NCBI RefSeq assembly: GCF_902713615.1
Contig: NC_052158.1
Coordinates: 37,935,729 to 37,999,728, forward strand
Direction: 5' to 3'
Source: Scyliorhinus canicula
Taxonomy: Eukaryota
Length of the DNA: 64,000 bases
A program made the translations under genes and the position numbers. This document shows positions 4,912-60,675 of this stretch, piece after piece; position 1 is the stretch's first letter; each line of letters opens with the position of its first letter. The notes beneath the pieces are model-generated. The model made no database searches, was not told where the DNA came from, and saw nothing but the letters and a program-made list of their open reading frames with translations.

Positions 4912-5974
4912 TGGGTGTTCCTCTGGTTGGCAATCAGTAGCTAGTGGTGTCCCTCAGGGATCCGTGTTGGGCCCACAATTGTTCACAATTTACATTGATG
5001 ATTTGGAGTTGGGGACCAAGGGCAATGTGTCCAAGTTTGCAGATGACACTAAGATGAGTGGTAAAGCGTAAAGTGTAGAGGATACTGGAAGTCTGCAGAG
5101 GGATTTGGATAGGTTAAGTGAATGGGCTCGGGTCTGGCAGATGGAATACAATGTTGACAAATGTGAGGTTATCCATTTTGGTAGGAATAACAGCAAACGG
5201 GATTATTATTTAAACGATAAAATATTAAAGCATGTCGCTGTTCAGAGAGACTTGGGTGTGCTAGTGCATGAGTCACAGAAGGTTGGTTTACAAGTGCAAC
5301 AGGTTATTAAGAAGGCAAATGGAATTTTGTCCTTCATTGCTAGAGGAATGGAGTTTAAGACTAGGGAGGTTATGTTGCAATTGTATAAGGTGTTAGTGCG
5401 GCCACACCTGGAGTATTGTGTTCAGTTTTGGTCTCCTTACTTGAGAAAGGACGTACTGGCGCTGGAGGGTGTGCAGAGGAGATTCACTAGGTTAATCCCA
5501 GACCTGAAGGGGTTGGATTATGAGGAGAGGTTGAGTAGACTGGGACTGTACTCGTTGGAATTTAGAAGGATGAGGGGGGATCTTATAGAAACATTTAAAA
5601 TTATGAAGGTAATAGATAGGATAGATGCGGGCAGGTTGTTTCCACTGGCGGGTGACAGCAGAACTAGGGGGCATAGCCTCAAAATAAGGGGAAGTAGATT
5701 TAGGACTGAGTTTAGGAGGAACTTCTTCACCCAAAGGGTTGTGAATCTATGGAATTCCTTGCCCAGTGAAGCAGTTGAGGCTCCTTCATTACATGTTTTT
5801 AAGGTAAAGATAGATAGTTTTTTGAAGAATAAAGGGATTAAGGGTTATGGTGTTCGGGCCGGAAAGTGGAGCTGAGTCCACAAAAGGTCAGCCATGATCT
5901 CATTGAACGGCGGAGCAGGCTCGAGGGGCCAGATGGCCTACTCCTGCTCCTAGTTCTTATGTTCTTATGTTCTT
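4912..5974 (+). mobile_element. 5'-truncated CR1 of a second subfamily inserted into the RT of the outer CR1
   Basis: The outer reading GRSCLTN|LIEFFEKVT is split. The insert has its own RT C-terminus (ORF 5105-5875) and a (GTTCTTAT)n tail, and is flanked by AAA on both sides (4909-4911 / 5975-5977). Confidence 0.9.
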
Positions 5975-18300: not shown

Positions 18301-18431
18301 TCCCGGAGGAATCCCACGCTGACACGGGGAGCACATGCAGACTCTGCACAGACAGTCCCAAGCCGGGAATCGAACCTGTGACCCTGTCCCTGTGAACCAA
18401 TAGTGCTAACCACTATGCGACCGTGATGCCC
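18301..18431 (-). mobile_element. HE1-type SINE 5' fragment overlapping the GPCR stop codon
   Basis: The - strand reads GGGCATCACGGTCGCATAGTGGTTAGCAC, the HE1 head, followed by B-box GGTTCGATTCC. Confidence 0.8.
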
Positions 18432-19337
18432 TGGTTCGATTGCTAACTATTTGAATAATTGAGGTGACTGGATATTTTACCGTATTCAGAAATTGTTCTC
18501 TGAATTTGGATTGTGTAACGCCATAAATAAATGTATTTGTGCAGCAACTTAAACTGAGCAGCATAACTCCGACCTGCTGAAAAATATATAAAGAATCCGT
18601 GTATTCTTCGGGATTTGTTCCTGTGATGTTATAATATATGAAATGCAGCACATATGTCAACCAAAGCAGTATGAAGCTGCCAGATATGCTGAATAGCAAA
18701 ATCATCGACTTCCTTCTATTCTGCATCTCTGCGTCAGTGCGATTCTCGCCATGTGTCTGAACTCTCAGCCCCTTACGTATTCGACTAGCTAGTAAAATAT
18801 ACCTGACCGTAAGGGTGTTGAGCAATAAAATTAAAGCGAATGGGAGCACTGGAGTTAAAATTGTGTCAATCCAGTCAAATACCATCCATCCAGGCTCAGT
18901 GTAGTAGCTTGACTTTGAGTAACAGAACCATGGCAAATTATTGATTATATTTCCAGGTTCAAATGTAAAAAAGAAGGGAACATTTTTTAAACATAACAGA
19001 AGGCATGTTGTTGTTAAAACAAAAGTTGCAACTCGCTGGGTACAGTACTTCGTTTTCAATTTTTGGCAACAAATGGCAACAAATCGATCAAAGGAAAAAG
19101 TAACAGTGAACCAGACAGAACAGTCTCTGGCTGCGCACGTCAGGGTATAAATCATACTGCAAACCGGGGTGACGTCCAGAAAGGTTCCTGGGAAATAATA
19201 ATAGCTGATCCGCCAAAGTATGACATCAGTGATTATGACCAGTAGATCCGCTGCTGCCATGTCTACCAAGTAGCGAGTGGTGCAGGTGGAGATACCACAC
19301 TTTGCCCGAGACAAGATCGCAATGGCAACTAAATTAA
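18406..19337 (-). CDS. GPR139/GPR142-like class A orphan GPCR, exon 2 (bulk of the 7TM domain)
   Basis: Intact ORF with VNLVAIAILSR, YLVDMAAADLL (TM2), SVWFTVTFSFDRFVAIC (TM3, DRF), TP.LPF (TM5), FILLW (TM6), SCCTNTFIY (TM7). Acceptor ttccctgttttgcag ends at 19338. Confidence 0.9.
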
Positions 19338-19445
19338 CTGCAAAACAGGGAAGATAAATACATAGGAAATCGTAAATTAAACAAACACCGTGCCTGAAAG
19401 CAGGTATCGTTCAAGGGTGACATCACTCAAAAGATATGTATTGGT

Positions 19446-35412: not shown

Positions 35413-35704
35413 CATAGAAGTGGCTTTGTCACTCTGAGAGAACCCAAATTTGAATCAGAATCCAATTGGAAAAAGAAAAACCACAAGCGTAAGACCAATA
35501 TCGATCAAACACCAAATTTGGGAAGTGAGTTATTTGCATGCGTGCTAACAAGGGATACAGGTAAACTTGATAGCTTTTGTTGCGTAACTGTCTGGAGTTT
35601 GGTAGGCCGGAAAATAGCGTGAGCCGTTCCCATGTTTACATCACCACTTTATTCCCCGCTGTTCCAAATTCAGTAGAAACCCAGAGTTTGCAATAGAATT
35701 GGAA

Positions 35705-38352
35705 ATGAAGGCAATGGAACGCCTTATCAAACCCCAGGAATTCGAGGTCGCAGCGAACAGTAGAATAGGGCACTGTCCCATTTGGGATGAGTAAATTAGA
35801 AAATATCTCAAAAGGAAAGGATGGCCCTTTGTACTGAATTTTGAGCAAACGACGAAACAGGTCCCGGAAGTAAAGGGCATATTTGGTGGTGTAACCTGAC
35901 AGAGACTCATAAGAAAAGCTTAGGGAAAGCTCGTAAGCCGATGGCAATCGTGTCCTGCTTGGCACAATTGCGAGGCACAGAGGAGGTCGTGAGGACGCTC
36001 TGTAGAGAGATTGAAGAGATAAATAAGAATAGTGCGGGAGGTGTGACTGAGTAATAGAAAGTTAACAGCGAACTGACAGAGCAGTTAGCGGTGAAGGACA
36101 AGGAGATGGCAGATGTCAAACGGTCACACCAATATTGTCTCGCCCATTTAAGTAGCTTTCAGTCGCAATATGACAAGGCCTGCCAAGACAGGCAGTGCGC
36201 GGTGTTGGTAAGAGAAGAAATAGAACACCAATTTGAGCAATTACAGAAACAATCTAATGATGTATAAGCAGCCCTACGAGCACACCACAGTTCCAAGACG
36301 GAACAAAGGCAGAGATCAGTGGACCACACTAAATACTGACAGCAAATTGCAGACATGCGATCCATGCTTTCTGTACAAAATGGATTCCAGAATACATTCG
36401 GACCCCAGTTAGACCAAGAAAATACCCCCGATTGGCATGAGTTAAATAAGACTGCCCATAGATTGGATTGGATTGGATTTGTGTATTGTCACGTGTACCG
36501 AGGTACGGTGAAAAGTATTTTTCTGCAAGCACCTCAACAGATCATTCAGTACATGGGAAGAAAAGGGAATTGAACAGAATTCAAGAAAATACATGAGAAT
36601 ACATAATAGGGAAATACAATATATACAACGTACATAATAAGCAATGGCATCGGATGAAGCAGACATGGGTGTAGGGTTAATGAGGTCAGTCCATAAGAGG
36701 GTCATTTAGGAGTCTGGTGACAGTGGGGAAGAAGCTGTTTTTGAGTTTGTTCGTCCGTGTTCTCAGACTTCTGAATCTCCTGCCCGATGGAAGAAGTTGG
36801 AAAAGTGAGTAAGCCGGGTGGGAGGGATCCTTGATTATGCTGCCTGCTTTCCCCCGGTAGCGGGAGGTGTAGATGGAATCAATGGATGGGAGGCAGGTTC
36901 GTGTGATGGACTGGGCGGTACTCACGACTCTCTGAAGTTCCTTGCGATCCTGGGCCGAGCAGTTGCCATACCAGGCTGTGATGCAGACCGATAGGATGCT
37001 CTCTATAGTGCATCTGTAAAAGTTGGTAAGGGTTAATGTGGACATGCCGAATTTCCTTAGTTTCCTGAGGAAGTAAAGGCGCTGTTGTGCTTTCTTGGTG
37101 ATAGCGTCGACATGAGTGGACCAGGATAGATTTTTGGTGATGTGCACCCCTAGGAATTTGAAACTGCTCACCATCTCTACCTCGGCTCCGTTGACGCTGA
37201 CAGGGGTGTGTACAGTACTTTGCTTCCTATAGTCGATGACCAGCTCTTTAGTTTTGCTGGCATTAAGGGAGAGATTGTTGTCGCTGCACCACTCCACTAG
37301 GTTCTCTATCTCCCTCCTGTATTCGGACTCGTTGTTATTCGAGATCCGGCCCACTATGGTACCATATGGCACCATAGATATGTACATGGCACATGTACTC
37401 AGGACAAACCACAGAAAAGGAAAGCACTCCCACCCCCGACTGCACAGGCAGAGCACAAGACCATGAACACTGTCACCACACAGCGCAGGGCCACAACAAA
37501 TGGAGAACCAGATTTTCTGTCAACCACCCCATTAACAGTAACTCAATTAAGGGATGCATGCGATAAGATTACACTGTTCCTACGCACATTGGACCCACAC
37601 CATTATTTTGCAAGAGTAAAACAACTGCGACCATGTACGGACTGTATCAAAAAGAGCAAGTGAAGCTCGCAATTCTGAGCCGCGACCCCTTAGTCGTGGC
37701 AGCCCTTCCCAACCGACAGAATGTAGGAGGAGGCACCCTCAAAGAAATGCGTGCAGCCATCCTAGATGCGATCGGCTACAATAAATGAGACACCGTAGAA
37801 GGCCGAAACAAATGTAGGCAGAAAATCACAGAGCACCCCACAGCATTTGGTGGACGCCTGTGGATTCATTTCACAGCGGTATTCGGAGTTATTCCGCGCC
37901 CATTTGACCCAGACAATATGGCCAAATGGAATCGAATCCTAGTCTCTCCCGCAACAGAAGTAGGACAGAGAGCTTGCGCAAATTGCGACCCCTCAGATGA
38001 GGCCCACAATGAGAAATGTGCACTAAAGAGATTGTCCCGAGCTTGGGAACAGTCCATGCAGGGAAAATCTGCTGACGGGAAAGCAGATGAAGAGCAGCCA
38101 GATTCTAACATGCATCCAGTGTGGACGCAGCAGAACCACGTATGGGTAAATGAGGGAAGAAATAGCCCACAGCAGCCTAAATCCCACGAATGTTACAATT
38201 GCAGACAATTAGAACATTATGCATGAGAGTGCAATGCGCCCCTGAAACAGAAGCAAAACCAAAAGGCAAACACCCTGGATAAGAATAGGGCCAAGCCCAT
38301 CCATAGTGTTTGCGCCCGTTCCGATAACGCAAATATGAAATGCACCGATTGA
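35705..38352 (+). pseudogene. gag: gag of copy A (degenerate, split by Rex1)
   Basis: Collinear with copy B gag (PMAIVSCLAQLRGTEEVV, LSVQNGFQNTFG, CYNCRQLEHYA.EC knuckle); multiple stops. Confidence 0.8.
36464..37371 (-). mobile_element. 5'-truncated Rex1/Babar LINE inserted in copy A gag
   Basis: ORF 36686-37456 reads NNLSLNASKTKELVIDYRK..AQQRLYFLRKL; (CAATC)n tail; TSD CCATAGAT at 36456-36463 and 37372-37379. Confidence 0.88.
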
Positions 38353-42368: not shown

Positions 42369-42837
42369 TCATCTTGCAGGCTTGAACATCTTCCGAGGCC
42401 CTTGGAGACCTTTTGTACTGACCCGACCTTACCTCGGCGGCCTGGAAGACGATCGGGACCAACCGGAAGTGAAGCCCTGACCTCGATTTGGAGTCGACAC
42501 GGACCTCGGAGCTCCAAACCCGGCCTAACTACCGACGCCATTCCCCGGAGCGCCTGGCCAAGTCCTCAGAGCTCCCGACACGACCTCCGATGGCAAGACC
42601 TGTCCGAACGCGACTTCGAAAGACCCGCCCAGCGTCACGATCCAGAGAGACCCACCCAGCAACCCGACTGACCTGGTGATGGAAGAAAGAAAAATCTACG
42701 TGGAGGCCCGACCGGGCCTGCTTCAAGATCCGACCCAGGAGCGCCCAGGGAGGGTACAGACCATGGGACCCAGCCCAACCTGCCTCAGGAAGCCCCTGCC
42801 CATGACCCAGGACCCAGAAACGCCGGAGACAGCGCAA

Positions 42838-43802
42838 TGTAGCCATCAAAGATGGACACCAGTCTACAAAATGGAGAACCACAAAGAATGCCGGGAAAAA
42901 CAGGCATAGTAAGGACACACAGCTTGCAGAATCATTTAGCATTTTTCACGTACAAAACCGGTTTCAAGGCAGTTGCAGAAACTCAGCCAAAGGTGCAAAT
43001 AGGAAAGCGATCTGCATACTAATGAGGTGATACCGGCCCAGTCCCAGACACAATAGAAACGTTTTATGTATCAATCGATACTTTTCTATAGCTACCCAGC
43101 CAGGATGGTACCAAAGAAACCAGAACAATGACCCCTAAGAGCCGCCCCAGCCATCAAGAAACGACCCCAGGATAGGGGAGTTCAAAACGTATCAATCGGG
43201 AAAGACCCAATCGATGAGGGAACCGCCCCAAGGGGGCCTGGACCTCCTGGGACCTATAAAAAGAAGGTCCCGCACATGATTCTGTCTGTTGCATCCTGAC
43301 TCCGGCCTAGGCTGTTGCATCCTGACTCCGGCCTCCGACTCCAGCCTCCAGATCCTGTCTTTCATCACCGGCCGTTGAGCATCAGCCATCTATCAGTAAG
43401 TGCCCAAAAGAACGATCGCTACGTGACCCAGGCATTGCTTATACTCTTGCCGACTTTAATAACCAGAAGTTGCAGACCAAGAACGGGATGAAGGCTTTGC
43501 CCCCTGACCTTGCCCGTTCCTTTCTAGATAAGTATTTAGTCGTTTAATGGTAGAAATAAGTATGAGTCTTTTAGCGTGTGCATGAGTATTTATTATATTT
43601 GTTATAATGAACACTAATTGTTTGGACTTACTGATCGGTGTTTAGATTTATTGCTTTGAACTTGACCTTGATAACTTGTGACGGTGTCTCTTACGGCACC
43701 TGGCGACTCCAGAGCATAGATACAGTACAGAGCCAAACCAGTGTTAAGCACATGTCCTTTATTGGAGGCATGTTAATCACACTAACAGTAGAACGAGCAA
43801 CA
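42838..43802 (+). repeat. 5' LTR of copy B
   Basis: Direct repeat of 51709-52674; TG..CA ends; TATA (CTATAAAA near 43254); internal tandem repeat CTGTTGCATCCTGACTCCGGCCT x2. Confidence 0.95.
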
Positions 43803-43807
43803 TTTAG

Positions 43808-43831
43808 TGGCGACATCCTGACGGGACACGA
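43808..43831 (+). promoter_or_regulatory. Primer binding site of copy B (tRNA-Arg-like, bulged)
   Basis: TGGCGACATCCTGACGGGACACGA, 5 nt after the LTR end. Confidence 0.6.
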
Positions 43832-44115
43832 TTAGAAGTGGCACCCCCACTCCGTGAGAACCCCAGAAATTTGAATTAGAAATCTGATTGGAAAAAAAAG
43901 GAAAAATCACAAGTGGTCAAGGTGTTCAAACCATTAACGATAATTGGGAAGTGTGTTTTGTGCATGTGTACTAACAGGGTTGTAAGGCAAACTGAGAGCT
44001 TTTTTTGTTGCGACGAACTTTCAAGAATTTTTAAGCGGAACATAGCGAAAGCCTTACCCGTCTTTTAAAATATTACCTCAACACCCCCTGTTCCAAATTA
44101 AGACAGGAGGAGGAA

Positions 44116-45854
44116 ATGGCCATGCAGGCAACGGAACGCCTCATGAACTCAGAGCAGTTCTTGTTCGCAGCGACCAGCAGAGTAGGTCAGTTTCCCGTGT
44201 GGGAGCTGGAACTCCGCAAGTATCTGAAATGGAAAGGATGGCCCCTTTGGAATGAGTTTAGTATGAATGAGGAGACAGGTCCCGAGAGTATAGGACATAC
44301 TTGGTGGGAGAACCTCTCTCAAATTCATAAGAAAAATCCGAGTAAAGCACGCAAGCCGATGGCAATCGTGTCCTGCTTGGTACAGTTGCGAGGCACTGAG
44401 GAGGTCGTTCGGAAGCTCCGGGCAGAGTTTGAAGAGAGGAATAGAATGAGTAAAGTGGATGTCAGGGACATCGAGAAGGAAAACTTAGAAATAAGAGGGA
44501 AGCTGGCAGAGAAGGGTAGAGAGGTGGATGATGCCAAGAGGGCACATCAGTCGTGTCTAGCCCATCTGAGCAGTTCCCAGACCCAATACGAAAAAGCCTA
44601 TCAATATGTGCAACGTGCAGTCCTGATAAGTGAGGAATCGGAAAAGCAGGTAGAGGCATTGCAGAGGCAATGCTCTGACCTAAAGGCAGCTTTAAGAGCA
44701 CTCCATGCTGCCACTACTGAGCAAAGACAGAGCACAGTAGACCATGCAAAATGCAGAAAGCAGATTGCGGAGCTGCAATCGCTGCTTTCAGTGCAGAATG
44801 GGTTCCAAAGCACTTTTGGAACGCAGTTAGATGAGGAGAATGCCCCAGACTGGCAGGAACTGAGTGAGACACTGCAGCGCTATGTTCAAAGAACATGTGC
44901 AACAGCAGCGCAGCAGAAAAGGAAAGCACCCCAACACCCCACAGATCAGATAGCATCCGCACCTATGAACCCAGTCACCACCCAAAGAAAGGCAACCACA
45001 GACGGCGCACCCGATATCACCTACACCACCCCCTTAACTGTAACGCATCTCAGGGACGCGTGTGAGAAAATCACTCCATTTCTCCCCACCGCAGACCCCC
45101 ACCAATTTTTCGCAAATGTTAAAGTGCAGGCTACCACGTACGGCCTGGACGATAGAGAGCAGGTTAAGCTCACGGTTCTGAGCTTAGACCCATCCGTAGT
45201 AGCAGCCCTCCACGACCCATAGAACGTTGGAGGAGGCACACTAGAGGAAATGCACACCTCCATTTTAGATGCAATAGGGTATAACAGAGGAGACCCAGTT
45301 GAAAGACTAAATAAATGCAGACAAAAGAGAACAGAGCATCCCACAGCATTTGCAGGAAGGCTGTGGATCCATTTCACTGAAGTTTTTGGCGAATTAGACC
45401 GAGCGCATTAAACCGTGACAACATGGTTAAATGGTCGCGCACCATAATCTCCCATGCCACAGATGCAGGACAGAGTACTTGCAATAGTTACGACCACTCA
45501 GAGGAGGCCCATAACGTGAAACGGGTTCTGGAAAGATTGCCCCGCGCTTGGGAACAATCGGTTCAGGGCAAAATTAAAATAAAGACCCAAGATGAAGCTC
45601 AGGCTGCAGCGGATATTCAGGCAGTGAGAGCGCACCAAAACCCCGCATGGGTAAACAAAGGGAAGAACAGCCCTCCACAGAAGTCGCAGGAATGCTACAA
45701 CTGTGGTCAGTTAGGACATTTTGCTAAGGAATGCAATGCACCCCAAAGATCACAGAGAGGCCAGCAGACAGGCACTCTGAACAGAACTAGAGCGAAGCCT
45801 ATTCACAGTTTAGGAATACAGTCAGGACAGACCAATGTGGACAGAACGGACTGA
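44116..45854 (+). pseudogene. gag: gag of copy B (coiled-coil N-half, capsid, single CCHC knuckle); one premature stop (45220) and a frameshift (~45410)
   Basis: ORFs 44116-45222 and 45423-45854; MHR-like CRQKRTEHPTAFAGRLW; CYNCGQLGHFAKEC. Confidence 0.88.
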
Positions 45855-48800
45855 CGGTGCTCGGGCTCCCCCACTTGGGTCTGTGACACCCTCTGGGACC
45901 AATCCGGGAGGCCGGTAATCACAGCAAAGTTTCGAGGGAAGCCCTTAGAGTTACTTTGGGACACAGGAGGGTCCCGCGCCACAATTAATTCCACCACCAC
46001 GGCACAGGCAGACACGTGGCCGACCACATCCACCATTACACTCAGCGGTTTTACAGGACACTCACAGCAGGGACACATTACAGCCCTCGTAGCAATTCAG
46101 CTAGGGAACATCTCCACCAGACACACCGTTGTATTAGTTAATCTGCCCTGTACAGCAGAACACATAATGGGTATAGATTTCATGAATGCCCATAGACTGT
46201 CGTTCGATCCAGTAAACCAGTGTGCCTGGCGAATGGCAAAATCAGACAGAGCACCCGCTACTCTCACAGTAGGAGAGTATGCAAATTGGATTAGCGCAGT
46301 AGGCGACTATTGTTTCGACCCGACCACGCTTAGCACGGACAAACAGGTTAGGACAGTTCTGAATAAACACAGGACAGCATTTGCCAGTCACCGGCATGAC
46401 TGCGGCAGAATGACTGGACAAGTTCAAGTTACCGGACCTGACCCCCGACCACAGAAACAGTACCGATTTCCCCTAGAAGCAGAGGGAGAGATTGGAAAGG
46501 TTATAGATAGCTTATTGGAGCAAGGTGGACTTAGGACAGTAGCCTCGACCAATAATGCTCCTATTTGGCCAGTGAGAAAGCCCGACAGATCATGGCGTCT
46601 GACCATCGATTATCGGGAGCTCAACAAAGTAACCCCAGCAGTAGCCCCCATGGTAGCAACAAGTCCCGAGATCATGCTCAAACAGGGACTCCACTCCAAA
46701 TATTTCACGGTATTGGACATCAGCAATGGCATCTGGTCAATCTCATTGGCAAAGGCGTGCAAGTACAAATTTGCCTTCACATTTAAAGGACGGCAGTATA
46801 CGTGGACATGCCTCCCACAAGGATTCCACAATTCACCCTCCATTTTCCACCGACAGCTGGTAAATGGTTTAGCAAACTTTTCCCGCCCCGAATGTCTGGT
46901 ACTGTATGTGGACGACCTATTACTGCAGACAGAAACAAAGGCAGAGCACATTACGCTTCTGGCCGAGCTCCTGCAACTTTTAACCTCGATCGGATGCAAA
47001 GTTAACCCCAGAAAGGCCCAGATATTAGAAAACAAAGTGATGCATTTGGGTACAGTCATCACGCACGGCAAACGCGAGATCGAATTCAAAAGGATTGATT
47101 CGGTTGTCAAATTGCCCCTTCCCCAGAATGTTTCAGCCCTCCGGTCGTTTTTAGCACTGGTTGGTTACTGTCGGAACCATATCGATGGTTCTGCGACAAA
47201 GGCAGCCCCACTCTCAGACCTCCTTAAGAAAGGAGCGCCATGGGAATGGCTTCCGCAGCTGACAGAAGCTATGGAAGCATTAAAGAAAGCCCCCAGCGCA
47301 GCACCTGCGCTACAAGTCCCAGACCAACTCTCCCCCTATGCAATAGAGGTAGCGAGCACAGATCTGACCCTCTCGGCCGTGCTACTCCAGGAACGGCACG
47401 AGCAGCTAAGACCAGTGGCTTATGTCTCCAGACTTTTAGACCCCATCGAGCTAGGATTTTCAGCCTGCAAGAGGCACCTCCTAGCAGTTTTTTGGGCAGT
47501 TCAGTACTTCGCGTACATTACCGGACTCAATCCCATCACCATTTTGACCGAGCACACCCCCACACAGTTACTTTTAGATGGTCGACTGAAGGACGGTTCA
47601 GTGAGCCAGATAAGAGCAGCTAGATGGACGTTACTGTTACAAGGACGGGACATAACAGTTAAACGGACCAGGACACACACATTTTTAGCCGACAACCTCC
47701 AATATCCAGGACAGCCCTATGAATGCGAATTGTAACACCCCTACACAAAACAGGACCCTTCATAGCAAAGACACCCCCCAGAAAGATAGGGAATTCAAGC
47801 CAGAGCCCCCAGCACACAGACACATGTGACCCACTGAAAATATATGTGGACAGTTCATCCACAGTTTTAGATGGAGAACGCATCACTGGATGCGGGATTT
47901 ATGTTGAGGATGTGCAGAGTCGCGCATTAGAAGAAATCTCTTTAAAATTACAAGGACACTTATGCGTGCAGGCAGCAGAGCTCGCGGCCATCGCATACAT
48001 AGTGGACCACCCAGATTCGTTTCCCAGCCCGGCAGACATATATTCGGACAGTTTGTATGTCTGTAACAGTTTAACAGATTTTCTACCCCTGTGGAGGACA
48101 CGAGGTTTTGTCTCCGCAGACGGGAAGCCCCTTCCATCAGCCCCATGACTCCACCATATCTTAGACAAGGCAAAGGATAGGGCGTATGGCATAATCAAAG
48201 TTAGAAGTCACCATAGGTCACCCCCTCTGGAAATGTAAAAGCCGACACACTGGCAAAAGCAGGTTCCAGGCGAGGGCACTTTTGGACACCCCCAGCTAGC
48301 GCACCAGCCAGCGCCCCTGTGAGTGCAGTTCAGGTCTCACGACGGAAATTAAAGATTTAGTTGAGGCACAGAAACAGGATAGAGATCTCAGGGAGATTTT
48401 TAAAGGAAATTTTGTGCACCAATACGATAAGTTCAGACACGCTTTGACCACACATGAGGGTGTGATAATTAAGGATAAACTTTATGTGGTTCCGGAACAG
48501 GATAGGAATCAGATGATTGCCTTGTTCCATGACAGTCATGGACACCAAGGGATCGACCCGACCACAAGACACCTCAGGCAACTCTGTTGGTGGCCAAATT
48601 TAAGAAACGATGTAACAAATTACATCGAGAATTGCCTAATTTGTGCACAAAATAACCCGGAGTGGTACTCGAAAAAGGCACAACTTAGACATACTCGACC
48701 AGTTGATGGCCCCTAGACTAACCTCCAGATCGATATTATAGGACCATTCCCCCCTTGTAGGAATGGCTATAAATATGTTCTGGTCGTTATAGACACCTTT

Positions 48801-50083
48801 ACCAAATGGGTAGAGGCATTCCCCTCACAAACCAATACAGCTAAGACAGCTGCAAATATCCTGACCCACCACATCTTCACGAGATGGGGTCTCCCGAGAA
48901 GTATAGAATCAGATCAGGGATCTCGCTTCACAAGACGGGTCATGAAGAACGTTCTGACAATATTTGGCATTAAACAACATTTCCACATTGCGTACCACCC
49001 CCAGTCAAGTGGGATAGTCGAACGCATGAATCGGACCCTAAAATCGACCCTTAGAAAAATGGTTCAGGAGAACAATTCAACATGGGATTCAGTACTCCGA
49101 TTTGCACTCATGTTCATCTGCAACACGGTTTCATCATCCACAGGATTCACCCCATACACACTCATGACCGGAAGCCCTATGAAAGGTACAGAACTCCTTT
49201 TAGGACTGGACATGCTAGACCCAAAGTGACGGCCCTCACACATGAGAAGGCAGTCAAAGATTTAGTTGAGACTGTGAGGTCTGCACAGTTAGCAGCCGCA
49301 GTAAAATTGGGAAAAAGATGAAAACAAAGCACAGCTTGCTTTAATAAGAATGTACACCCCACAGAATTTCAGGTTGAACAACAGGTAATGTTATCTGTTT
49401 ATAACCCCAGCAGCTTTTTGGCACCTACATTTTCCGGCTCGTATTCAATTTCGGACAAAATTAGCCCCTCCGTTTACAGAATAAAATACCCCAACGGTAA
49501 GATTGCGTGGTTTCATATTAACCAACTGAAGATATATGGAACACAGTCTAACCACACACACCATGTCCTGCTAGACGCAGTAGAACATCTCGCCCCGACC
49601 CCTATAGACACATTTCCACCATCCCCCTCACAGACCAGTTCCTCATCGGACTCGCCCACGACTCTGTCCACTGACTTCAGACCACGCCCCGAAACGCCCA
49701 CAAGCTGCCACAGCAGAGACAGCGACACTGACTCAGACAATGAGGACAGCCACAGCACCCAACCCTACAGCCCCCACTGTAGCAACTACGACCCCGACTC
49801 CAGTGACCCCATGGTGGTCACCTACGTTAAACACCCAGACCCACCACCCGACCCCAACGACCCCAACAGTGCCCCATCAAACTTAGATACCACACTTTGG
49901 CACAGGGACAATTCATGGAGACTTGTCCGTAATGATGAGAGTGACCCCCAGTCACATAACGGACAGATCGCATGCCTGATCCATACAAGAGTATGGGATC
50001 CGGGAGAAAAGGAAGACTTGATGTCTGACTCCCGGTACGGCAACCCCTTTGTGACCCTGTTCACAGAGAGAGAGGAGAAGTGA
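45855..50083 (+). pseudogene. pol: pol of copy B: protease, RT, degenerate RNase H (tether), RNase H, integrase with long C-terminal tail
   Basis: LLWDTGGS (DTG 45960-45968), LPQGFHNSP, YVDD, IYVD.SS/AAELAA/IYSDS/GNVKAD, HDSHGH..CLIC, LQID/SDQG/VERMN. A few stops and frameshifts. Confidence 0.92.
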
Positions 50084-50973
50084 GGTGTCCAGATGATGTA
50101 AAAGAGGAACCACTTGAGGGAAGCGATATCCTTTCTAATGGAACCTGCACGTATGTTTTGTTTGTTTGTGTTTGTTTGTTGCTGATATGTTAAGGGTTTG
50201 ATTGGAGATCAGATCACAGTCTTTTCAGCTGAAAAACTTGTGACCGCCTGGCACACACGTTAGCTTGTCTGCAGAAACTTCTGAGAACTACTGTTAGATA
50301 TCCTCTGGTGAACCGACAAAGTTCACGACTTGTAATCTGTTTTCAGATGTTGGAGCACCTTGGCTCCTCCCTTGTTTTTCAGGTGCCCCTCTATTCTGTG
50401 AATAGAATCTGCAATTCCACGATGAATACATTCATACCCGTTCATTTCAGGTTGCTCAGGCAGTGGAGAAACGGCATTGAGGACCCGCCCTGTCTGAGAA
50501 CCCCTTTGGTCATCCTAGCTCGGGTACGGCACAGCATGCCTTACCTGGGGATCCCATACAAATCTTACCCGTAGCGGCCCATACGGAACTCATTCGGCCT
50601 TTTCGTTTGAAATTTGGTTTCATTTTTCTTGAGGTAGCCCTTCGGCAGCCATCCCACGTGCTATTTACATCCAGGAACATTCGGATGGTAAATAACAAAA
50701 CCTGCGAGACGGCTCGCAGTGGTAAAGTTGTTAGGTGTGCATCCGCTCCTAAATTCGCATTTGAAAAAAAAAATGAGGGGAGTCACAGGGTGTGACTTGG
50801 CCATTAATTTAATGGCCAATTGGAATGAGAGGACAGATACACTAACAGTACAGATATTAAACTGTGTATTGACAGATACTGTGCTTGATCCCATAGCTTT
50901 CGAACAGTCAAAGGAGGGTTCACGGCAAGGATCGGCCCTACAAAGGAAGAGAAGGAAGAGAACAAAGAAGACC

Positions 50974-51321
50974 ATGATGGAAGCCTACCTATTTATTTTA
51001 AATATTGTTGTATTTTTGCATGTTGAAGCAAATCATGTTTCCCCCACGACCCCCACCGTTAATGTTTCCCACACACCGACTTCTCCGTGCTCAGCACTGA
51101 TCAGTGAGGTTTAGACCTGGTGCACGAAATTCATGACCTGGTACTCGATGTCGTATGTGATTGAATCACTGTTGGTGATTGCAATTCTCTGCATCATAGT
51201 ACAGACCCTCAGGTTGAGGAAATGGAAAAGGAGAGCCTCCCGTTCCTGCCCCTCAACCATTTACGGAGCTCATTCCCCTATTTTCGGTTATCACCAATAC
51301 CCCCAACCCCTTGATGCATAG
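50974..51321 (+). pseudogene. Small type I transmembrane protein ORF in the env position (115 codons, one in-frame TAG at 51112)
   Basis: MMEAYLFILNIVVFLHVEA-NHVSPTTPTVNVSHTPTSPCSALISEV*TWCTKFMTWYSMSY-VIESLLVIAILCIIVQTL-RLRKWKRRASR..PIFG..; Kozak context accATG; homolog at 55869-56237. Confidence 0.8.
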
Positions 51322-51688: not shown

Positions 51689-51708
51689 TGAGGATCACAA
51701 GGAGGGAA
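51689..51708 (+). promoter_or_regulatory. Polypurine tract of copy B
   Basis: TGAGGATCACAAGGAGGGAA directly before the 3' LTR; the same motif lies at 56604-56623 in copy A. Confidence 0.8.
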
Positions 51709-52674
51709 TGTAGCCATCTAAGATGGACACCAGTCTACAAAATGGAGAACCACAAAGAATACAGGGAAAAACAGCCATAGTAAGGACACACAGGTTGCAG
51801 AAGCATTTAGCATTTAGCACGTCCAAAACCGGTTTCAGGGCAGTTGCAGAAACTCAGCCAAAGGTGCAAATAGGAAAGCGATCTGCATACTAATGAGGTG
51901 ATACCGGCCCAGTCCCAGATATAATAGAAAAATTTTATGTATCAATCGATACTTTTCTATAGCTACCCAGCCAGGATGGCGCCAGAGAAACCAGAACAAT
52001 GACCCCTAGGAACTGCCCCAGGCATCGAGAAACGACCCCAGGATAGGGGAGTTCAAAACGTATCGATCGGGAAAGGCCCAATCGATGAGGGAACCGCCCC
52101 AAGGGGGCCTGGACCTCCTGGGAACTATAAAAAGAAGGTCCCGCACATGATTCGGTCTGTTGCATCCTGACTCCGGCCTAGGCTGTTGCATCCTGACTCC
52201 GGCCTCCGACTCCAGCCTCCAGATCCTGTCTTTCATCACCGGCCATTGAGCATCAGCCATCTATCAGTAAGTGCCCAAAACAACGATCGTTACGTGACCC
52301 AGGCATTACTTATACTCTTGCCGACTTTAATAACCAGAAGCTGCAGACCAAGAACGGGACGAAGGCCTTGACCCCTTACCTTGCCTGTTCCTTTCTAGAT
52401 AAGTATTTAGACGTTTAATAGTAGAAATAAGTATGAGTCTTTTAGCGTGTGCATGAGTATTTATTATATTTGTTATATTAAACACTAATTGTTTGGACTT
52501 ACTGATCGGTGTTTAGATTTATTGATTTGAACTTGACCTTGATAACTTGTGACGGTGTCTCTTACAGCACCTGGCGACTCCAGAGCATAGACACAGGTAC
52601 AGAGCCAAACCAGTGTTAAGCACATGTCCTTTATTGGAGGCGTGATAATCACACTAACAGTAGAACGAGCAACA
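51709..52674 (+). repeat. 3' LTR of copy B
   Basis: Direct repeat of 42838-43802. Confidence 0.95.
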
Positions 52675-55868: not shown

Positions 55869-56237
55869 ATGAAGACATACATCATGGTCGACATTTGGAT
55901 CTTCGCAGGATCCCTACATTTGCGCCCGGATGCAACCCCCCTGACTCCTACACCACAGGATGTGAATGTTTCCCATCCCTGCCACACAACACCTGGATAC
56001 AGCCACTGATACATCAACCTCGAGACAGCCACTGATACACCGCCCTGGTGTGACAAGTTAATCACCTGATATTCCCTGTCCTACATTGTTGAAGCACTGA
56101 TAGTCATTGCAATACTCTGCAGTGTCATCCAGACACCGAGACTTAGGAAATGGCGAAGGAAAGCCTCCCGCACTCCGGTATATTCCCTCAGACCCCCTAT
56201 TTTCGGACTTCAGCAAACCCCCACTCGCTTAAAGTGA
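55869..56237 (+). pseudogene. Small TM protein ORF of copy A (homolog of 50974-51321; two in-frame stops)
   Basis: MKTYIMVDIWIFAGSLHLRPDATPLTPTPQDVNVSHPC...PPWCDKLIT*YSLSYIVEALIVIAILCSVIQTPRLRKWRRKASRTPVYSPRPPIFG, all in one frame. Confidence 0.75.
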
Positions 56238-56623: not shown

Positions 56624-57438
56624 TGTTGACATCTGGGATGGCCACTTTCAGAATACAAAATGGACGCTCACAGAGAATGTAGGGAAATGTGAACAATGCA
56701 GACAACAAGCAGGCATAGTGCCTGAATATATATTTGGGAAGCAGTTACCAGACAGAATCAAAACTCTGGGTCGTTTAGCATATGGTGGCGCACATCCGAG
56801 GAACAATGGACTAACACTCAGGTATTTGATACTGTTGCAGACATCCCGGCGCCAGTACCCCAACCGAAATTCACAAACAAAGCAAGACCAACCTCCACCA
56901 CAGACACGCCGAGCCATCAGGGCACCCGCCCCTTCATTTTAAGATTGATAACAGTGATCGACTAGCTGCCCAATTAATTGGGACCAAGTTTAAGGTTCGC
57001 CAAAAAGCACGCAAAGCCCCTCCAAGTACAAGAAGGAACACCCTCGAGAGATTCGCTCTCTTTGATTTGCCTCTCAAGCTGGAGAGACCTATCCACCAGC
57101 ATCACAAGAAGCAAGTAGGTCCAATATCAACGCTCTCTCCCAGATGGACGACCTTAGCTGTTCTCCTGTTATCTCCTCGAACCCGACAACCTCAGATCCG
57201 AACAAAGGCCATTGTTCCTCTGACTAAGTGGGCACCCGAAGTTAAGTATAGACGTTAGCGTCAGAGATAGTTTAGTTTGTAGTACTGTTGTGCATGAGTA
57301 AATCTTACTGTGTGTATAAATAAATAGTATTTACTTTGAACTAACTAAGTGATGTCTTTGCTCTTTGATCGGTTATCGGGTTGAATCTTGTGTCGTTATC
57401 GAGAGATACCTCGCAACTCTGAAAGTACACATAATTAA
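56624..57438 (+). repeat. 3' LTR of copy A (3' end deleted)
   Basis: Homologous to 34514-~35328; preceded by the PPT; runs directly into mid-gag sequence. Confidence 0.85.
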
Positions 57439-60400
57439 CCGTGACCCAATTATGGGACGCGTGTGAGAAAATTACACCGTTCCTCCCCACTTCAGATCCC
57501 CACCAATTCTTCACTAAGGTTAAACAGCAGGTCACCATGTACAGACTGGACGAGAGAGAGCAGATAAAGCTCACAGTTTTAATCCTCGACCCTTCAGTCG
57601 TGGCAGCGCTTCCCAACACACAGAATGTAGGAGGAGGCACCCTAACAGAGATGCACACAGCAATCCTTGATGCGATCGGCTACAACAGAGGAGACCCGGT
57701 AGAAGGTCTAAACAGATGTAGGCAAAATAAAACAAGAGCACACCACAGCTTTTGCTGGACGCTTGTGGATTCATTTCACCGCAGTTTTTGGTAAATTAGC
57801 CCGCGCCCATTTGTCCCCAGATAACATGGCAAAATGGACTCGAATCTTGGTCTCCAATGCAACAGAGGCAGGGCAGAGAGCATGCGCGAATTACGACCCC
57901 TCAGATGAGGACCACAATGAGAAATGGGATTTGAAAATGTTATCCCGCGCTTGGGAGCAATCCGTTCAGAGCAAGACCACATTTAAGAAACCCAAGGAAG
58001 AGCAGGGAGATGCAGACATGCATACATAAAAGCACACCAGAACCCCGCATGGATAAATGAGAGTAGGAACAGCCCACCCCAGCCCAAATCACAGGAGTGT
58101 TACAACTGTGGTCAGTTAGGACACTTTGCACGAGAGTGCAACGCGCTGCAGAAACAGAGAGTGCAGCAGACAGGCACCCTAAATAGAAATAGGGCAAAGC
58201 CCATACATAGTGTTAGTGCCCGTTCAGACCATGGAGACATGACCGGCACAGAGTGACGGTGTTCGGGCTCCCCCAACTTCGGTCTGCGACACCCTTTGGG
58301 ATAAGTCCGGTTGACCGGTCGTAGCAGGCAGAGTCCGGGGTCAGCCCGTTGAATTTCTTTGGGACACAGGAGGGTCCCGCACCACACTCAATTCCTCCAC
58401 GATGTTCCAGAGGGACACGTGGCCCACAACAGACACCATTTCCCTCAACGGCTTTACAGGTAATTTACAACAGGGATACGTCGCAGCCCCTGTATAAATT
58501 AAATTGGCAACATAACCACCAAGCACCCCATAGTGTTAGTCGATGTGCCCTACACAGCAGAACATATTTTAGGGATCGACTTTATGAGCTCCCATAACCT
58601 TTAATTTGATCCAGTCAATAAATGTGTTTGGAAAATGGCAAATCCATCACGAGCCCCCGCCACGCTCACAGTAGGAGAGTATGTAAACTGGATTAGCTCA
58701 GTAGGAGACTACTGCTTCGACCCGCGAACCATTAGTGCAGACAAACAGGTTAGGGCAGTCCGGCAAGAACACAAAGCAGCATTTGCACAGCACAAGCACG
58801 ACTGTGGCAGAATGGCTGGCTCTGTGCAGATTACAGGTCCTGACCCCAGACCCCAGAAGCAGTACGGATTTCCCCAAGAAGCAGAGGGAGAAATCGCGAA
58901 AGTTATAGATAACTTGTTAGACCACGGCGTACTGAGATCAGTAGCCTCCACTAATAATGCCCCGATTTCGCCTGTCAGGAAACCGGATGGATAATGGCGA
59001 CTGAGCATTGCTTACCGGGAACTGAACAAAGTCACCCCAGCAGCAGTCCCCACCTTAGCCACAAGTCCCGAGACCATGCTCAAGCAGGGACTCCAAACAC
59101 GATTCTACGGTTTTGGACATGAGTAAAGGGTTTTGGTCCATTCCATTAGCTAAAACGTGCCAGTACAAATTTGCCTTCACCTTTAACGGACAGCAGTATA
59201 CGTGGACATGCCTTCCAAAAGGCTTCCACAACTCCCACTCCATTTTCCACCGACAGCTGGCAAATGGATTAGCTGAATTTTCCCGCCCCGAATGTCAGGT
59301 CCAGTATGTAGACGACCTGCTACACAAAAGTCAGACAGAAAAGCAGAGCACATTTCGCTTCTAGCAGAACACCTAGGACTCCTCAAAGAAATTGACTGTA
59401 AGGTAAACCCCAAAAAGGCCCAGAGTTTGGAAGAAAAAGTGATATACTTGGGAACAGTTATCACACATGGTAAACGCCAGATCGAGCAGAAGAGGATTGA
59501 CTCGATTGTCAAATTCCCCTTCCCCACAATGTCTCAGCCCTGCGGTCATTTTTAGGGCTGGTTGGCTACTGCCAAAGGCACATGGACGGTTTCGCCACGA
59601 AGGCAGCGCCCCTATCCGAACTTCTCAAGAAGCAGGCGCCTTGGGAATGGCTTCAACAGATACCGTGGATGTTTAAAAAGAGCACTCAGCACATCCCCGC
59701 ACAATAGGTCCCAGACCCACTTTCTCTGTATGCTATCGAAGAAGTCGAACCCTTTCGGCTGTGCTCCTCCAGGAACGCCATGACCAGTAAAGACCCGTGG
59801 CATAAGCCTCACGAGTGTCGAGCAAGGATTTTCTACCTGTGAAAGGCACCCGGTCGCAGTTTTTTGGTCAGTACAGTACTTCTCATACATCACAGGACTC
59901 AACCCCATCACCATCCTCACCGAACACACCCCAACACAGATTTTATTAGACGGCCAACTTAAAAATGGCACAGTCAGCAAAATCCGAGCAGCCCGTTGGA
60001 CCCTTCTTTTACAGGGATGGGACATCACAGTTAAAAGAACAAAAACACAAACCTTCCTTGCAGACAATTTACAGTACCCAGGCACCCCCTCATGAATGTG
60101 AGATTATCTCCACACAGCACAAGACAGGCCCATTCATTCAAAAGACACCTCCCAGGAAAATAGGTTCCACACACACAGAGACCCCAGCCCACAGACACGT
60201 GCGCACCCCTGAAGATTTATGTGGACGGCTCCTCCACAGTTTTGAATGGCAAACGCATAACAGGTTGCGGCATTTATGTAGAGGACGTGCAGGGACGTGC
60301 CCTAGAAGAGATTTCCCGAAAGTTGCCAGGACACTTAGGCTCGCAGGCAGCAGAGCTGGCAGCAATCGCATACATAGTAGACCACCCCGACTCATTCCCC

Positions 60401-60675
60401 ACTCCAGCCGACATCTATTCAGACAGCCTGTATGTCTGAAATAGTTTGACGGAATTCCTACCCCTGTGGGAAACAAGAGAATTTGGTTAAGCAGACGGAA
60501 AACCCCTACCATCAGCCCCATTACTCCGCCATATTTTACAGCAGGCAAAGGAAAGGAAATACGGAATTGTCAAAGTTCGCAGTCACCACCGTTCTTCCCC
60601 CCACTCGTAATATTAAAGCAGACGCCCTAGCAAAGGTAGGTTCTAGACATGGTTATTTTTGGAACCACCGTGAAT
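57439..60675 (+). mobile_element. LTR element copy C: internal fragment (gag CA-NC, PR, RT, tether, RNase H), truncated at both ends
   Basis: TQLWDACEKITPFLPTSDPHQFF, CYNCGQLGHFAREC, FLWDTGGS, LPKGFHNS, YVDD, VDGSS..SQAAELAA..IYSDSLYV. No integrase or downstream LTR. Confidence 0.88.

Follow-up and report, generated by a model that had tools for sequence, protein, structure and literature searches.

A small gene at the env position may be how an env-less catshark retrovirus moves between cells

Closest described systems and the catshark gene

Envelope-free transfer is associated with two groups of small membrane proteins, the reovirus FAST proteins (PMC12945298, 10.1101/2025.03.14.642691) and the sORF2 proteins of env-less LTR elements of the insect MDG1 group (10.1101/2025.03.14.642691). 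According to the latter source, sORF2 proteins are single-pass proteins of 63–107 aa that are encoded on the forward strand of metaviruses and carry a polybasic patch after the transmembrane (TM) helix; the gene lies downstream of pol in seven of 22 lepidopteran consensus sequences, and the myristoylation motif is also missing in two of six fly sORF2 proteins. A third comparable system is CrocERV31, a crocodilian endogenous retrovirus (ERV) in which a captured nectin3 gene replaces env and is under purifying selection (PMC4299795).

The gene analysed here lies in element B, an env-less ERV within the window, i.e., the whole stretch of 64,000 nt of the Scyliorhinus canicula genome that was analysed. 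It had been described in the original prediction as FAST- or sORF2-like, which held for size, the single TM helix, and the polybasic layout, but not for a link in sequence or fold, for acylation, for ectodomain length, or for a Tyr after the TM helix. Like the insect sORF2 genes, it is located in an env-less LTR element, on the forward strand and, as in some of them, downstream of pol, and it encodes a single-pass protein with a polybasic patch after the TM helix, the N-terminus outside (a topology inferred here), and a mature size within the sORF2 range. Size, single TM helix, basic patch, a proline-rich stretch, and an aromatic outer segment are shared with the reovirus FAST proteins as described in the consulted text. 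At least three Lys/Arg among the 15 residues after the TM helix characterize the FAST/sORF2 group, and the shark proteins carry 6.5–8 on average. In contrast, Gly2 (N-myristoylation motif) was found in none of 68 ORFs, the di-cysteine after the TM helix, palmitoylable in FAST proteins, was absent in the copies examined, and ~60 residues precede the TM helix (~42 after the predicted signal cut). To our knowledge, FAST proteins use no cleaved signal peptide. Further differences from sORF2 are the vertebrate retrovirus as host instead of a metavirus, the predicted signal peptide, N-glycan, and TM Glu, and the lack of a post-TM Tyr and of any sequence likeness; an ectodomain of ~30 aa is given for sORF2 and FAST proteins in the consulted text, versus ~42 aa or more here, and neither a glycosylated stalk nor a TM Glu is among the features named there for the group. 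Since acylation, ectodomain length, and post-TM Tyr did not agree, the small protein was not filed as FAST/sORF2. With CrocERV31, the shark element has in common that the env position is taken by the gene of another membrane protein, under purifying selection; the shark gene differs from nectin3, a recognisable host gene with three Ig domains and six insertions in the consulted text of that study (PMC4299795), in having no recognisable source, a length of ~115 aa, and hundreds of copies or more.

Homologs were searched with a profile of eight natural copies, which yielded four matches among 1.84 billion representative sequences and one near-length plus nine longer proteins in the 90% collection (8000 candidates scored in the search for longer proteins), all of them from Scyliorhinus. 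No significant match for the small protein was obtained in Pfam, PDB (none at E 10), or a viral fold library (E 0.001), and no match at ≥0.9 in the ESM Atlas. FAST, sORF2, and viral proteins in general showed no homology to it in sequence, PDB, and fold searches, although for FAST/sORF2 these searches have little power, since sequence does not connect the members of that group and the AlphaFold model of the small protein has a pLDDT of 65 and a pTM of 0.32, its tail being a low-confidence coil. Likewise, no SU/TM cleavage site, fusion peptide, heptad repeats, or match to TLV_coat or Fusion_gly was found in the small protein. TMEM156 was considered and rejected as a relative: Pfam E-values for five of seven small-ORF proteins were 0.0015–0.22, all below the cut-off, and a genome search gave six weak matches, none over the cut-off, two of which were known copies of the small ORF. 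An account of the gene was not found in the open literature (Repbase, Dfam, and subscription journals were outside the scope); the element itself may be catalogued in repeat libraries, and the small membrane-protein family is apparently undescribed.

The host retrovirus and its copies

Element B is inserted into a LINE, which in turn lies in the integrase end of an older relative, element A (~34513–57437; LTR K2P 0.139 over 805 nt), and its gag-pol is damaged by stops plus five frame changes (Table 1). In a search within the window, the small ORF of element A matched that of element B with an E-value of 4e-22, the next match having an E-value of 0.57. Several further observations were made in the window. 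The plus-strand LINE that hosts element B reaches ~55379, a minus-strand LINE piece lies in gag of element A (36461–37353), and the 3′ LTR of element A stops at 57437, where it joins directly the gag-pol of a third relative (57435–60663). Between the 4-bp target duplication of element B and the TG of its 5′ LTR, an extra AA is present (42836–42837), as if the end had been left untrimmed, and a similar extra AA was seen in one of eight young copies. Positions 18406–19410 of the minus strand are occupied by a 334-codon ORF for a GPCR of the rhodopsin family, in a single exon (Pfam 7tm_1, E 1e-21).

Table 1 Features of elements B and A in the window
Feature	Position	Strand	Remarks
5′ LTR, element B	42838..43802	+	K2P between the LTRs of B 0.048
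Primer binding site, tRNA-Arg(TCT) type	43808..43826	+	Resembles 3′ end of own-genome tRNA-Arg(TCT) gene
gag, broken in element B	44117..45854	+	Coiled-coil region, one CCHC knuckle, no Gly2; TGA-CGG end in frame with pol
pol, element B (protease, RT, tether, RNase H, integrase)	45855..50083	+	Stops and frameshifts in element B
3′ splice site (predicted)	50869..50896	+	Branch-point-like motif and YAG, 77 nt before ATG, then GAA-rich stretch
Small membrane-protein ORF, element B, 115 codons	50974..51321	+	In-frame TAG at codon 47; dN/dS 0.27
Signal peptide (predicted, cleavable), aa 1–19	50974..51030	+	Short hydrophobic core, small residues before predicted cut
Pro/Thr/Ser stalk	51031..51117	+	N-x-S sequon at 51061–51069
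Aromatic membrane-proximal helix W-C..W-Y-S-x-S-Y	51118..51156	+	Most constrained part; helical in structure model
Transmembrane helix with conserved acidic residue Glu64	51157..51210	+	Best 19-residue hydropathy 2.2–2.4
Polybasic juxtamembrane patch, then short tail with Y..PIF	51211..51243	+	6.5–8 K/R per 15 residues
Polypurine tract	51699..51706	+	
3′ LTR, element B	51709..52674	+	
Small ORF, element A	55869..56237	+	Two in-frame TGA stops and a short insertion

That the element is retrovirus-like, as originally proposed, was borne out by its pol, in which protease, RT, an RNase H-like tether, a second RNase H, and integrase follow each other, and by the RT, which scored closer to retroviruses (MLV 4e-55, foamy virus 6e-55) than to Ty3/gypsy (Ty3 2e-30). 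The nearest pol proteins were frog and coelacanth gene models (48–54%; annotated NYNRIN-like), and these were joined by the element in RT trees with support of 97/98 and 99/98, on a branch separate from the gamma/epsilon-like group and from gypsy elements; the trees contained no labelled SnRV or Loki rows. No relative of the element RT was found in viral contigs. The closest frog pol model (P0002) ends, at residues ~1190–1291, in a hydrophobic stretch and a weak Ig domain (E 0.012, below the cut-off); the model is either chimeric or includes an adhesion gene captured at the place of env, like nectin3 in CrocERV31.

The host element likely belongs to the clade of the snakehead retrovirus (SnRV), a placement based on the coiled-coil, non-myristoylated Gag with a zinc knuckle, the readthrough pol, and the Arg primer. 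Its Gag gave weak coiled-coil-type matches and has one CCHC knuckle and no Gly2; TGA-CGG stands at the end of gag, in frame with pol, in all eight young copies, six of which have target-site duplications of 4 bp; and the primer site of one young copy matches an own-genome tRNA-Arg(TCT) over 18 nt (ARAGORN called one of six loci). SnRV also uses an arginine primer. For the SnRV clade (SnRV, CmiERV lineage I, Ovex1, and frog SnRV-like elements), the consulted parts of the literature describe a coiled-coil, zinc-knuckle Gag thought not to be myristoylated (PMC2717909) and a pol reached by stop readthrough (PMC13517186), and many predicted splice sites are a further common trait. The readthrough context of the shark element, UGA-CGG in the RNA, is among those listed in the same source (PMC13517186) and differs from the UAG-GGC of SnRV; the shark element also differs in having no env and one small membrane ORF. 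Relatives of SnRV that carry env have been described (PMC4422223, PMC4299795), as has an env-less SnRV-like element in a frog transcriptome (PMC4131045).

A lokiretrovirus identity, which had been favoured first, was rejected given an RT far nearer to MLV and foamy virus than to Ty3 and the lack of a paramyxovirus-F-like env, and the element is probably not a lokiretrovirus. A PF00523 search across the genome was blank and is uninformative on this question. Four RT motifs of the element were not found in the line-broken, partial text of the Loki supplement, and the pol start of the coelacanth Loki was, by eye, unlike the coelacanth relative P0005. Loki and Odin elements resemble it in the tether plus RNase H, in NYNRIN-like nearest proteins, and, for Odin, in the lack of env, and the consulted text reports no lokiretroviruses in the three cartilaginous fish genomes of the Loki study (PMC7947760, PMC9040795).

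Each of four queries yielded at least 150 scored matches in the genome, from ~5300–5600 first-look candidates, figures that are not copy numbers. With the window protein as query, 132 of the 150 best matches were without a stop in the match, a proportion biased by the ranking of the matches. Five subfamilies (A, A2, B, D, and E) carry the small ORF at the same place, always 0.75–1.0 kb after pol and ~0.4 kb before the 3′ LTR, without env; in element B, the distances are 890 nt from the pol stop and 388 nt to the 3′ LTR. The absence of an env-sized ORF noted in the original prediction was confirmed, as the 1626 nt between the pol stop (50083) and the 3′ LTR (51709) contain no stop-to-stop frame longer than 140 codons. 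Among 30 B copies picked by pol, 27 had the small ORF within 1.5 kb (open in 18 of the 27), two had deletions extending across the ORF and a large part of the 3′ LTR, and one gave no further match. The youngest subfamily, D, was found via an unrelated pol query (41 matches listed, 40 without a stop). All eight D copies fetched have LTRs that are 99.8–100% identical as well as open gag, pol (one with a short 5′ break), and small ORF, and an open small ORF was present in 40 of the 41 pol-picked D copies among the matches listed (eight fetched, twelve that coincide in position with known open ORFs, and 20 of the other 21); in one copy it was not found in the 600 nt examined. At least 150 copies were found to encode a 99–100% identical small protein. 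Complete lack of an intact copy, named beforehand as an outcome that would speak against the original prediction, is not the case, open copies being common in the genome. The lineage is autonomous, recently mobile, and env-less.

No env was found at any of the small-ORF loci examined, including 13 of 16 A/A2 loci with pol upstream (the other three being without pol) and two of three E loci. Env-bearing ERVs do exist in the same genome (78 matches listed, ten followed upstream) and belong to other clades, which makes help in trans possible. Their RT is 30–37% identical to that of the element, and the six that were placed in the RT tree fell on a different branch. At loci L107–L136 and L148–L157, at least four groups of gamma/epsilon-like env ERVs were distinguished, some with env frames of ~560 codons. 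It could be argued that the small ORF is an accessory gene, belonging to a defective virus that is supplied with Env in trans by another retrovirus, or to one whose env-bearing parent was left unsampled by pol searches restricted to the best 41–151 matches, and the presence of these groups, some with open env frames, speaks for it; given the distant RT and separate branch of the env-bearing elements examined, and small-ORF loci free of env, we regard this as very improbable.

Selection, predicted product, and predicted RNA

The reading of the small ORF of element B as one 115-aa frame interrupted by a single TAG (51112–51114) was confirmed. A codon model was used to estimate selection. Of 37 pol-picked copies, three near-duplicates were removed, and twelve of the remaining 34 lacked one of three regions, which left 22. 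Omega was 0.27 for the small ORF (2ΔlnL of 60.7 versus omega 1), compared to 0.11 in the integrase core and 0.21 in its tail; in shifted frames of the small ORF, omega was 1.7 and 3.3–3.7. Pairwise dN/dS was 0.16–0.32 in frame in nine of nine comparisons and 0.65–3.5 out of frame, where the within-B and within-A sets, chosen by protein likeness, are biased low, and the A–B, A–D, and A2–D comparisons are near saturation. Constraint is highest in the outer helix (W-C..W-Y-S-x-S-Y: pN 0.00–0.17 vs. pS 0.49–0.96 in six subfamily comparisons), followed by the TM helix and basic patch, whereas signal and stalk drift. The small ORF is a real, selected gene. A dN/dS near 1, likewise named in advance as counter-evidence, was not observed, and the proposed past selection on the protein was upheld as selection but not as past only, since many copies are open and very young. 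Purifying selection across multiplying subfamilies implies that the protein helped copies to make new germ-line insertions; host co-option, unlike this, would act on single loci.

Alternatively, the frame could lack any protein function, having stayed open in young copies by hitch-hiking, its conservation being that of an RNA element. In line with this, the non-coding stretch between pol and the ORF also aligns, at 64–77% between subfamilies, and the 3′ ORF of SnRV acts largely in cis (PMC12193657, partial text). Such a reading is largely refuted, and we give it next to no credence, because positions with fixed amino acids still diverge freely at synonymous sites (pS up to 0.96, pN 0.16) and omega is below 1 only in the true frame.

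The small proteins are 108–143 aa long and have one 19-residue hydrophobic helix with the sequon ahead of it. The layout given in the original prediction was retained for the sequon, the TM Glu, the polybasic patch, and PIF; from the claim of conserved cysteines, only the Cys of W-C remained, which is near-invariant (110 of 112 loci, some fetched twice), whereas the stalk Cys was found in none of three sequences of subfamily E and the TM Cys in none of six of the youngest subfamily, D. The N-x-S sequon is present in 66 of 68 distinct open ORFs (a set collected by a pattern on the core), with x varying (D, Y, G) and N and S constant in subfamily A2, and PIF is found in 66 of the 68. At the acidic TM position, Glu occurs at 109 and Asp at three of 112 loci (118 examined, some fetched twice). 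The tail contains a single conserved Tyr, before PIF, and the outer helix has a hydrophobic moment of 0.30–0.35; in FAST/sORF2-like proteins, amphipathic motifs are expected both outside and inside, the inner part here being the tail modelled as a low-confidence coil. Across the five subfamilies, the signal region reaches a best 9-residue hydropathy of 2.1–3.4 and a best 19-residue hydropathy of just 0.8–1.8, and its hydrophobicity is retained at identities between subfamilies of 0.14–0.54. Judged by these predicted parts, the product is very probably a type I glycoprotein, which would enter the ER via a cleavable signal peptide, become N-glycosylated, and mature into a type I membrane protein of ~95 aa, possibly disulphide-linked via the one conserved outer Cys.

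A branch-point-like motif followed by YAG lies 41–87 nt before the ATG in subfamilies B, D, and E, a comparable site exists in A and A2, and donor-like sites are present in R/U5 and the leader; from these predicted signals, the small protein is probably made from spliced RNA. No GT-AG joint was found in contigs of four runs from four studies, which were only guessed to be RNA; contigs of the same runs cover 28–30 of 30 bins of a young copy, at depths that cannot rank its parts. In the leader (43948–43978 and 35522–35552), a donor-like GAAGTG(A/T)GT and, 22 nt further on, a branch-point-like CTAACA(A/G)G form a pair conserved in B, A, and young copies with diverging flanks. Several pyrimidine-AG acceptor-like sites were seen between pol and the small ORF (50084–50973), and a purine run plus a short hairpin-like GTCAC..GTGAC (50770–50810) precedes the acceptor in A, B, and D, possibly as a second polypurine tract or an RNA element. 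Two further candidates were discarded. One was another conserved small ORF located between pol and the gene, as the short frames vary by subfamily and none is common to all. The other was an N-terminal extension of the ORF, as the spacing from acceptor to ATG varies modulo 3, judged with a pattern that failed to pick up any of the 19 A copies and six of the seven A2 copies.

Host transcripts, too, seem to make use of the acceptor in several catshark gene models, of which P0125, P0162, P0164, P0165, and P0126 join host exons at it (read from protein junctions), and one model agrees with the genome to 98% along its exon. Models P0127 and P0162–P0167 (B3GAT1-like, KIAA1958, SUGCT, HEPACAM2-like, galectin-domain, and TERF2-like) contain the ORF or part of it as an exon. 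The predicted models suggest repeated exonisation of the small ORF through its acceptor.

Possible roles of the small protein and their meaning

As a tentative leading reading, to which we assign slightly less than an even chance, the small protein may help capsids to pass between cells, being sORF2-like in role and not a member of the FAST family. Selection on copies that yield new germ-line insertions makes an intercellular step the simplest explanation, and this step is put first because intracellular copying would hardly require a type I membrane protein that carries a glycan. In this mechanism, the basic tail would gather the non-myristoylated Gag capsids at the membrane, the aromatic outer helix and the TM Glu would engage or disturb the neighbouring membrane, and capsids would pass from the producing cell (e.g., a gonadal somatic cell) to germ cells. 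That the env-less lineage is still infectious within the animal, its capsids moving from soma to germ by means of a new class of signal-peptide-bearing, glycosylated mini-fusogens or cell-contact proteins, is possible but doubtful, and that the small protein is itself a fusogen is unlikely. Against a transfer role, the glycan-bearing stalk would tend to keep membranes apart. Env-less ERVs can also spread inside germ cells without a surface protein.

Host membrane proteins are misrouted or silenced by Vpu and adenovirus E3-19K, and the small protein could be a host-modulating accessory protein of this kind, the TM Glu and outer helix of which would bind an immune receptor, MHC, or a restriction factor; in one variant, it would be a signalling-dead mimic of the CD3-zeta/FcR-gamma adaptors. 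We consider this reading rather improbable. Adaptors combine a signal peptide, a short Cys-bearing ectodomain, an acidic TM residue, and a basic patch, a layout found in the small protein, and the zeta-type TM exon of the own genome aligns with it gap-free, acid on acid and with L[RK]L[RK] in register, an alignment that was equalled by 50 of 1000 (B) and 28 of 1000 (D) local shuffles. DAP10 and influenza M2 were Atlas neighbours at 0.82–0.83, Adeno_GP19K was matched with an E-value of 0.03 by one copy, and small accessory ORFs are encoded by SnRV according to the consulted part of PMC12193657. However, all these scores are below significance and the adaptor idea was chosen post hoc; the best zeta alignment of subfamily A falls on the signal peptide, the eight own-genome matches of the zeta family model exclude the small ORF, which has no Pfam match, the tail contains no ITAM or YINM, and the strongest constraint lies outside the membrane.

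The location at the env position, the predicted spliced RNA, and the order of signal, aromatic helix, TM helix, and tail would also fit a shrunken ancient Env of the clade, whose signal, Trp-rich region, TM helix, and tail outlived the fusion machinery and would now form an anchor in an internal membrane, to which non-myristoylated Gag is recruited for assembly in the same cell. The SnRV-like relatives with env (PMC4422223, PMC4299795) and the SnRV Gag thought not to be myristoylated (PMC2717909), as far as described in the consulted text, agree with such an origin. It is nevertheless an unlikely account of the present protein: no Env was among the matches in the 1.84 billion representatives or among the longer proteins (8000 candidates scored), the small-ORF profile reached a best E-value of 0.68 against 40 env-bearing own-genome loci, five env translations reached 0.35 against the pol-to-LTR region, and three lokiretrovirus Env tails were, by eye, without the motif, all of these own-genome and lokiretrovirus Envs being of other clades, which makes this a weak test. 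A deleted env, the third outcome named beforehand as counter-evidence, found no support in these comparisons. Origin as a shrunken Env and a present role in transfer are separate questions, and both can be true.

Loss of Env is usually read as the retreat of an ERV to copying within single cells, a view that is challenged in vertebrates by a young, high-copy, env-less family with a selected surface glycoprotein. Screens for ERVs that demand env or long ORFs, as described in the consulted parts of PMC4422223 and PMC10435555, would miss such elements. If transfer by the small protein is true, envelope-free transfer would have arisen independently a third time, besides reovirus FAST and insect sORF2. 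Whatever the mechanism, the gene represents an apparently undescribed family of viral membrane proteins, and as it occurs in a living model group that can be bred, the question can be tested in shark gonad tissue. The family appears to be still expanding in sharks, and its small gene at the env position may be how an env-less retrovirus moves between cells.
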